From Escherichia coli (GTDB taxonomy: Bacteria > Pseudomonadota > Gammaproteobacteria > Enterobacterales > Enterobacteriaceae), in the NCBI RefSeq assembly GCF_044324785.1, contig NZ_CP172127.1: 64,000 nt of DNA; one strand, written 5' to 3'. Made by a program: the position numbers and the translations under genes. Positions 2,739-4,374 of the stretch are shown here, one piece after another. Numbering within the stretch: the first letter of the stretch is position 1; each line of letters begins with the position of its first letter. The notes under the pieces were generated by a model that saw only the letters and a program-made list of their open reading frames with translations, did no database searches and had not been told where the DNA came from.

Positions 2739-3093
2739 ATGTAGAGATTATTTTATCGATATATCATGGAGTTATGTTATTCAGCATCACAGTTCAGGAG
2801 GCTCAATAGCGGGGTACTATACCATAACAACAGGAAGCGCCTGTCTCATTGCAAAAGAAAATTGAGATCCTCTCAAGGCATGAAGCTCTCACGAAGTGAA
2901 GATATAATCTTATTAGATGTTAGCGTTGTGAAAAGCAATGATAAACAATTCAGTTTCGACTGATAAATAAAAAATCACACATAAACCATGCTGATATATC
3001 TCGCGGCGAATAGTATTGATAGATAAAAAAGAACCCAATCATTGTTGAGTTCTTTTGTATAATGCCTTCCATACCATCGAAGAACTTCACATA

Positions 3094-4050
3094 TTATTTC
3101 TCCGATTTAACCCCGAATAAATCATAAATTAATTTAGAAGTGTCTGTAAGTATTTTAATCTCTTCCTTTGAGGTTGGGTCAAACGACTTAGCGAAGCTAA
3201 TTAATTGCGGTGCAGCATCTCGCATTTTGCTTAAAATATCAGGTTCGAGCTTTCCTTCATTCACCAGAAGTGACATCTTCTCCAGATAGTCATCAAAATT
3301 CATTTCTCCCCCATCTGCCAGACGCTTCATCTCTCCCAGGTACTTCTTCATATCACGTTGAGATAATTCTTCAAACTGAGCTTTCAGGTAGTTATCATTA
3401 TATTCATTAATATTCACTCTTCCTGCTAAATCTGCGTAGGCACTAGAATATGAAAGTGAAATCAACAGCGAAGCGAATAATTTTAAGCTGTTGTCATCAT
3501 ATTCCTGACATGCATTAACAAACGTTAAGAAACCAGAACCTATTGCTTGCAAATGTATATTCGCTAAAGGTTCATTATCTTTAGATTCCTCATAAAATAG
3601 CTGAACCGTGGAGGGAAGGCCATTCTTAGTTTCTACGTCAAAAGTACATCGTTCTATGAGTGTCGCATCTTTATTATCCTCGGGATTACATATACTATTA
3701 ATCGCGAAATGAAAAATAGCCCTGTCAACAACTGATGCAATAAATTCACGATCGTTTAATTCCTCATCAGTACAATCTCCAATATACTCATTGACACACA
3801 TTTTGAGATCATTTATTTGCTTAATTAACGTCACATTTTTTTCACGTGCAGGCCATAAATTATGAGTGATTCTTTGAATAAACAAATCTATTTTTGCAAT
3901 AATTATATCCCGATGACGCATCGCTGAATAATCAATAGATTTACCATATATACTATTTACTTTACCTTTGATTGCATCTTCATTATCGAATTGATTTGAA
4001 TTGAGTGTTTTATTAAAGTATCCAGTTGCACCGGGTATTATCTTCAACAT
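3094..4050 (-). CDS. Hypothetical protein in an AT-rich islet; uninterrupted equivalent of K-12 yjbL+yjbM
   Basis: 318-aa ORF with visibly low GC. Position between dusA and zur matches K-12 yjbL/yjbM, and Met84 onward gives 235 aa. I recognise no domain. Confidence 0.7.
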
Positions 4051-4374
4051 GATTCATCTACCTTTTTTGTCGTACCGTGTCCTCCTTATAATTCTTTTGC
4101 CATTTGGTCACTATCAAAAATCGCTCATATTTTTCTGAACTGCGGGTATGCGATCAACCCCAGTTAAATAAATAGCGAGTTAACTTGAAGCAATTTATTT
4201 AAAAATGAATTATTAATTATTATCGTGTAGTTGTAGATAATGGTACTACCAGGCAATACAACACCTTACCGACAAATCAAAAAATCAACATTACGGCAAC
4301 ATTAAGGGTTCTCGGTGTTTTCCCTGGAACATGGTAAAGTAAGGACATTCTTAACCCCCACTTTGAGGTGCCCG

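Follow-up and report, generated by a model that had tools for sequence, protein, structure and literature searches.

The window, that is, the whole 64-kb stretch of Escherichia coli DNA that was analysed, carries the gene order qorA, pspG, dusA, islet, zur, yjbJ, dinF, lexA, dgkA, and plsB, in which the islet between dusA and zur (2739–4374) is a block of approximately 35% GC with one real ORF (Table 1). Over 200-nt intervals, the GC content lies between 0.28 and 0.41 from about 2700 to 4300, compared with 0.50–0.61 in dusA and zur; just two further stretches of the 64 kb are equally AT-rich. With 0.28–0.41 against approximately 0.52, the islet is AT-rich relative to the genome and thereby a candidate for H-NS silencing. 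An earlier note on this DNA had pointed out a low-GC block with a single ORF beside dusA, and both the composition and the minus-strand ORF bear this out. The dusA gene possesses two possible starts, at 2732 (MHGN...) and 2687 (MPEK...), with the ATG codons at 2732–2730 and 2687–2685, respectively. The terminator-like hairpin behind the islet ORF was also recovered as inverted repeat I4, and an Rfam search of positions 1–8000 of the window gave no match.

Table 1. Features of the dusA–zur region in window coordinates.
Feature	Position	Strand	Remark
dusA	1695–2738	minus	intact ORF, 345 aa
Resident part of dusA, from recombination core to stop codon	1695–2636	minus	same as native alleles from 2636 downward
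Octamer ATGCTCGA in the dusA att core	2629–2636	minus	site to which the ancient crossover maps
Element-derived replacement 5' end of dusA	2637–2738	minus	87–92% nt identity to integrase-linked element copies
Conserved foreign DNA upstream of dusA	2739–2900	minus	promoter/leader presumed from conservation
Terminator-like hairpin, 12-pair stem followed by a T run	3027–3056	minus	38 nt past the DUF2713 stop codon
DUF2713 gene, 318 aa	3094–4050	minus	Pfam PF10897
AT-rich foreign DNA upstream of DUF2713, to the right edge of the block	4051–4307		no counterpart in native loci
Retained native spacer, zur promoter region	4308–4374	plus	aligns with Nissle, E. albertii, and E. whittamii
zur	from 4375	plus	

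The islet ORF matches the Pfam family DUF2713 with E = 2.7e-145 and 482.6 bits (cutoff 27), and its residues 84–318 cover profile positions 1–235 of 235. K-12 MG1655 possesses the same gene with the same flanks at the same locus, 93.9% identical in nucleotides over the ORF, where it is annotated as yjbL (b4047, 84 aa) and yjbM (b4048, 235 aa, DUF2713). In K-12 the reading frame is split into these ORFs of 84 and 235 aa, whereas the ORF of the window is undivided. In strains PK5 and LR-25, too, the gene is broken, here by an annotated frameshift (the broken loci are L093, which is K-12, L098, and L099). Full-length forms dominate the DUF2713 protein clusters, and the gene is single-copy in E. 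coli genomes. The islet gene is already catalogued as uncharacterised; the term "DUF2713" appears in no paper of the searchable literature, and the papers that name yjbL and yjbM merely list both. When 5.8 billion proteins were searched by word index, close DUF2713 relatives turned up almost only in E. coli. DUF2713 proteins had no match in NCBIfam, and five members of the family had none among the PADLOC defence models at E values up to 0.1. In a plasmid collection, the only matches were two E. coli records of chromosome size that had been filed there. Two PHROGs profiles of "unknown function", phrog_29005 and phrog_28007 (246 and 40 positions, respectively), match the gene almost perfectly, probably because prophage predictions overran from dusA into the islet and swept it in. 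The predicted structure of DUF2713 is all-alpha with the first ~39 residues disordered and reaches a pLDDT of 72.8 with distant homologues added; an AlphaFold2 model built from a shallow alignment of E. coli sequences only was discarded (pLDDT 50). In Foldseek searches of the PDB and of viral models, no hit had an E value below 0.8.

The foreign DNA is not bounded by the start of dusA, as the earlier note had it, and continues for about 100 nt into the gene. In alignments with the native alleles of Nissle, E. albertii, and E. whittamii, the last difference falls at 2637, the sequences are identical from 2636 downward, and upward from 2637 they cannot be aligned until ~4308, where homology to the zur-proximal spacer returns. 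The switch from native to foreign sequence at 2636/2637 lies within the conserved core of the dusA 5' region, of which the 20-nt sequence CCAATGCTCGACTGGACGGA matches at 2620–2639, inside dusA. The foreign DNA thus spans 2637 to ~4307, and these 1,671 bp replace 141 bp of ancestral sequence, namely ~54 nt from the start of native dusA plus 87 bp of the spacer between dusA and zur. Islet-bearing genomes likewise match an empty-site probe only from probe position 85 on, which is its zur-proximal part. The resident part of dusA is ~98% identical among E. coli, islet-bearing or not, with dN/dS values of 0.00–0.22 that are mostly ≤0.05.

The sequence that took the place of the native gene start is of a known kind. 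The islands specific to dusA target the conserved 5' region of the gene, swap its 5' end for their own sequence, and provide promoter elements; those published range from 4.8 to 185 kb (Farrugia et al. 2015, PMC4482086). K-12 and MG1655 are absent from the supplementary files of PMC4482086, and no description of the present dusA scar was found in the paper or its supplements. The first ~100 nt of dusA in the window are of the type that elements with dusA-specific integrases supply and not of the native enterobacterial type. The corresponding DusA peptide follows the motif KMHGN.EM.K..QTS...HWSGRFS[VI], compared with M..E.Q..[FY]PA[HY]RFSI... in the native type, and these 100 nt share 87–92% nucleotide identity with the integrase-linked copies and the copy of S. 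diarizonae. Integrase-bearing elements that supply similar 5' ends occur in Escherichia, Kosakonia, Phytobacter, and Pluralibacter. The replacement end keeps the reading frame of dusA and is 99–100% conserved across all islet-bearing loci compared. Between the K-12-type and the native end, no nucleotide similarity is found over ~50 nt, and the former carries a 15-codon extension, whereas the flanks are ~98% identical; the K-12-type end therefore cannot have diverged in place. Based on these observations, we regard the element-type 5' end of dusA as a firm scar of integration and hold this part of the interpretation with high confidence. The scar sits inside dusA, and the earlier description of an islet next to an intact target is inexact, because the insertion point of genuine elements is within the gene rather than upstream.

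A scan for DusA in 100,044 species-representative genomes yielded 80 enterobacterial loci, among which the element-type peptide occurs only beside such integrases or in fossil loci. The element-type dusA end adjoins an integrase 82–100% identical to that of O157 at five loci, namely the O157 locus itself (L004) and those of Escherichia sp. (L005), Pluralibacter (L063), Phytobacter (L064), and Kosakonia (L065). Two further loci (L022 and L044) carry integrases ~70% identical to the O157 enzyme together with a looser variant of the element-type end. A tblastn search with the O157 dusA integrase found the gene in all seven of these loci, and a stub of it in S. enterica diarizonae (L010), where 30 residues are kept (E = 7e-8). 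This locus, Kosakonia pseudosacchari (L026), and a MAG (L058) possess the element-type end but no working integrase. Apart from a few with other N-termini, the remaining loci that have no integrase beside dusA are of the native M..E.Q..[FY]PA[HY] type, among them E. albertii, E. whittamii, and E. coli with empty sites. The decay of dusA elements to a scar seems to recur across genera.

The O157-type genomes show the layout expected before such decay. In these genomes (locus L004, strain NCCP 13914), a prophage remnant with an integrase (12187–13372 of that locus) sits in dusA, and the order is new 5' end, integrase, prophage, attR, old 5' end, islet, and zur. This prophage shares with the window the locus, the octamer ATGCTCGA, and a near-identical MHDNHE...MPEKTGVYWNSRFSV 5' end (the two dusA 5' copies are 92% identical); unlike the window, it has the integrase next to dusA, ~10.7 kb of prophage genes, and a retained attR. 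Beside the islet, it leaves a 105-nt dusA 5' fragment that equals the window sequence up to ...CCAATGCTCGA and then passes into phage DNA, with the junction at window position 2629. The attR junction of the modern prophage (2629) and the ancient switch (2636/2637) both fall in the octamer ATGCTCGA. The displaced 105-nt fragment is of the K-12 type and not of the native type, which indicates that the modern prophage landed on the older scar. Of 5,426 complete E. coli genomes, 729 carry a full-length dusA integrase gene of the O157 type, so the dusA site is in active use today; some E. coli genomes hold up to six places that match this integrase.

Upstream of the replaced gene start, the segment 2739–2900 is 95–99% identical across the DUF2713 allele classes, compared with only 78–89% in the neighbouring 2900–3100. 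Such conservation is expected if the segment now carries the dusA promoter, and it is presumed to hold the present-day promoter and leader of dusA. A TATAGT hexamer resembling a -10 element lies within it at 2821–2816 on the minus strand. Further promoter-like sites were located at 2966–2938 and 2932–2904, in a region where the number of such sites does not exceed chance. A 14-nt motif at 2815–2828 is similar to the native sequence upstream of dusA (GCGCTACTATAGCATAA) and also to the beginning of the integrase gene of active elements (ATGGCGTACTATAACATA). It might serve as a shared -10 element for dusA or be a relic, a choice for which the motif is too short, and its reading as a relic of an integrase start or as a recombination joint was set aside for the same reason.

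The block itself bears no mobility genes or att repeats, as the earlier note had stated. With the O157 dusA integrase as query, tblastn found nothing in window positions 2600–4400 even at E = 100, and with up to three mismatches allowed, the only copy of the att core CCAATGCTCGACTGGACGGA in the 64 kb is the one inside dusA. Direct repeats matching the dusA 5' coding sequence, for which the earlier note had proposed a search, were not found in the islet region. No piece of the native 5' end of dusA, nor of the part of the native spacer next to that gene, is present in the window, and the islet itself lacks a transposase, a target-site duplication, and terminal repeats. Neither its non-coding flanks nor its ORF resemble any integrase-bearing dusA element that was fetched, and tblastn against GenBank phages gave no match to the islet or DUF2713. 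The marks of a dusA-specific element found here are the junction in the core and the replacement 5' end; a tyrosine integrase, which such elements normally carry beside dusA in divergent orientation, and imperfect direct repeats of ~21 bp (attL/attR) were not found. The lack of a mobility signature noted earlier applies to the block; inside dusA, which the earlier note did not consider, the element-type 5' end and the switch in the att core are preserved. Compared with the islands of PMC4482086, the window agrees in the element-type 5' end, the maintained frame, and the supplied upstream sequence; it differs in lacking an integrase, attR, the displaced native 5' fragment, and other element genes, with 1.67 kb left. 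With neither an integrase nor attR, the block is predicted to be unable to excise.

The distribution of the two arrangements was examined by presence/absence probing of the 5,426 complete E. coli genomes, using the native dusA 5' end and native spacer of Nissle as the native probe and window positions 2637–2790 as the element probe. The native probe was found in 1,123 genomes, always at ≥99% identity, and a probe across the empty dusA–zur junction is contiguous in the same number. The element-type 5' end joined to the left edge of the islet is present in 4,301 genomes (~79%). The two counts together account for 5,424 of the 5,426 genomes, and mixed states, such as an islet with the native end or an element-type end without the islet, were not found in any of them. 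The empty-site E. coli, in which the spacer measures 154 bp, include Nissle (EcN), LF82, and ST131, which we take to belong to phylogroup B2. The empty arrangement with a spacer almost identical to that of Nissle is also found in E. albertii, E. whittamii, and two further Escherichia representatives, DUF2713 is encoded in none of the 80 enterobacterial dusA loci, and the native N-terminal peptide type is common to dozens of enterobacterial genera. The empty sites in Escherichia relatives and the native N-terminus across the enterobacterial loci thus indicate that the native state is ancestral and that the islet is a gain within E. coli. The interval comparison suggested in the earlier note is answered in the same sense, the block being absent from E. 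albertii, E. whittamii, and all other enterobacterial loci examined. That note had tied its case for foreign DNA to the block not being shared by all Escherichia and close relatives, and 1,123 of the E. coli genomes are without it. In Enterobacteriaceae (L010–L084), the dusA–zur interval ranges from ~150 bp, as in native Escherichia, to ~3.5 kb, and its ORF sets vary: an ORF of ~400–420 aa is frequent, some genera carry a 162-aa ORF, and a few carry two ORFs of ~100 aa.

In the history that we favour, a dusA-specific integrative element, either a prophage or an island with a dusA-associated tyrosine integrase, survives as an immobilised stump at 2637–4307; we put the probability of this reading at roughly 60%. 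The sequences show that in a forebear of most E. coli, 1,671 bp of foreign DNA, with the left edge in ATGCTCGA, took the place of 141 native bp. The new dusA 5' end is of the kind that such elements bring in their attP arm, which keeps DusA intact after integration. A later deletion could then have removed the integrase together with everything else of the element, attR, and the native 5' fragment that had been displaced; it may have run into the native spacer and ended 67 bp before zur. The right edge is an arbitrary point in the native spacer, as for the endpoint of a deletion. A block left without integrase and attR would have been unable to excise and could thus have become fixed. In strains with the islet, K-12 included, dusA would now be transcribed from 2739–2900 and start with element-encoded codons, and the DUF2713 gene, with its own terminator, would most simply be surviving cargo of the same element. 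The earlier proposal of an old remnant is accordingly supported for the dusA 5' end by its element type and the shared octamer, and it is likely for the DUF2713 gene itself. Since the islet has no similarity to active elements or phages and DUF2713 is single-copy, the case for cargo is made by contiguity with the scar and perfect linkage to it in 5,424 genomes; that the gene has no mobility features of its own also speaks for cargo. In every active dusA element seen, the integrase directly adjoins dusA. The loss of the integrase with retention of DUF2713 needs two deletions or a different element layout, which counts against cargo status.

A history that is less probable but a serious contender separates the scar from the gene. 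Here, a dusA element integrated and was cleanly deleted, and the DUF2713 islet is an unrelated spacer insertion that occurred before or after this on the same branch; if the islet was already present, a single deletion from the integrase to the islet edge gives the arrangement of today. The O157 arrangement minus one deletion would give the layout of the window, and the fossils in K. pseudosacchari and the MAG, which keep the element-type end with no obvious cargo, show that near-complete loss of an element happens. The dissimilarity of the islet to any active element fits this history as well. However, it requires one more independent acquisition than the cargo scenario, no intermediates were seen among the 5,426 genomes, and the islet shows neither a transposase nor a target-site duplication nor terminal repeats.

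The attP arms of phages are generally held to come from host genes through imprecise excision, and the transfer could in principle have run in reverse, with phages copying their dusA-mimicking arm from a K-12-type host whose 5' end had arisen without integration. The 92% identity between the copies of the window and the O157 phage agrees with such a direction, as does the host origin of attP arms in general. We nevertheless consider it highly unlikely in view of the ~50 nt without similarity and the 15-codon extension amid ~98% identical flanks, which argue against divergence in place, the breakpoint within the att core, and the occurrence of the same type on integrase-bearing elements of Phytobacter, Kosakonia, and Pluralibacter. 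Least credible of all is an islet with an MHGN-type end that was ancestral in Escherichia and lost by deletion in Nissle, ST131, and E. albertii: its majority presence (79% of E. coli genomes) is all that speaks for it, while the empty sites hold 141 bp missing from the islet allele and hence are not deletions, the native sequence is kept in E. albertii, E. whittamii, and the two further Escherichia representatives, and the native N-terminal type spans dozens of enterobacterial genera.

Under the preferred reading of an immobilised stump, the locus represents the end state of the decay of a dusA element, in which a replacement gene start and probably one cargo gene have become fixed in ~79% of the E. 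coli sequenced. The locus adds a degenerate case, with an orphan gene attached, to an established kind of element, and it leaves the knowledge of how dusA-specific elements work unchanged. The DusA of K-12 owes its N-terminus, and probably the promoter of its gene, to an element; the native forms are those of Nissle, ST131, E. albertii, and other enterobacteria. Comparisons of DusA expression or N-terminal function between strains should therefore allow for two types of dusA 5' end. Furthermore, yjbL/yjbM moves from an anonymous orphan to a likely prophage-derived, rapidly diversifying gene, which the clean natural presence/absence polymorphism makes easier to study.

The diversification is visible in at least three DUF2713 allele classes that occupy the same locus with the same islet boundaries (L091, L094, and L095). 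Class 1 shares ~69% nucleotide and ~48% amino acid identity with the other two classes in the ORF, whereas across the classes the flanks are ~98% identical and the non-coding parts of the islet 89–94% (85–92% among alleles in the segment 4051–4307). Between classes, DUF2713 has dS values of 0.5–0.8 and dN/dS values of 0.38–0.58, compared with dS values of 0.01–0.11 (<0.12) and dN/dS values mostly ≤0.05 for dusA and zur between the same loci. Class 2 is present at ≥95% identity in 206 of the 5,426 genomes. With an overall dN/dS of 0.24–0.58 and most alleles at full length, the DUF2713 gene is evidently maintained under purifying selection, as judged from the sequences. On the same basis, the classes are much older than the surrounding DNA, which points to imported alleles or a long-maintained polymorphism. 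Near the N-terminus, a 10-residue repeat, DATKDKLDNx, is present in zero, one, or two copies, giving proteins of 318, 328–330, and 338–340 aa, respectively. The allele of the window is without the repeat, the site of which lies at ~3970–3980 (codons 24–27, alignment A3), and the first 21 residues are invariant in all 20 aligned class-1 sequences.

An exhaustive profile search of 1.84 billion representatives revealed a few remote relatives of DUF2713, namely proteins of ~400 aa with an N-terminal extension (P0150, P0151, P0168, and P0174) and one of 336 aa (P0169); two remote relatives come from E. coli draft assemblies. The extra N-terminal region of the ~400-aa paralogues measures ~150 aa. 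The paralogue loci (L085, L088, L089, L090, and L100) lie on short contigs, which stem from gut metagenomes and E. coli drafts, with IS elements, hok, an AIDA-type gene, and KfrA as neighbours; in complete E. coli genomes, no ~400-aa paralogue is detectable. In L085, the paralogue lies 1.5 kb from a protein with a SopD-type N-terminus and PipB-like pentapeptide repeats. The idea of DUF2713 as a type III effector, which draws on this one neighbourhood and the disordered N-terminus, is held with low confidence; the effector models of Pfam and NCBIfam do not match DUF2713 proteins, and no specific fold match was obtained. As a best guess, DUF2713 may act in conflict or in host interaction, perhaps as a secreted effector, and is less likely to be a housekeeping enzyme. 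A bolder proposal, which we consider rather doubtful, is that DUF2713 represents an unrecognised Escherichia-specific conflict or host-interaction family, for example a type III substrate or an anti-phage factor, that arrived as prophage cargo at dusA and whose ancient classes are kept by balancing or diversifying selection or by repeated allelic replacement from unknown donors, the DusA of K-12 being at the same time a chimera with a phage-derived N-terminus and promoter.

In being a single AT-rich gene within conserved backbone, the DUF2713 islet resembles the YjbI/EspX-like and ArpA/ShET2-like islets of the window; in contrast to these effector-family islets, DUF2713 resembles no effector family in sequence or fold. 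The two other AT-rich islets of the window hold one gene each, both of type III effector-like families. That at 12095–13675 (minus strand) encodes a SopA-family pentapeptide-repeat protein (NCBIfam PRK09718), and that at 47698–49884 (plus strand), situated between iclR-like and aceK-like ORFs, encodes a protein with ShET2-N and ankyrin regions.
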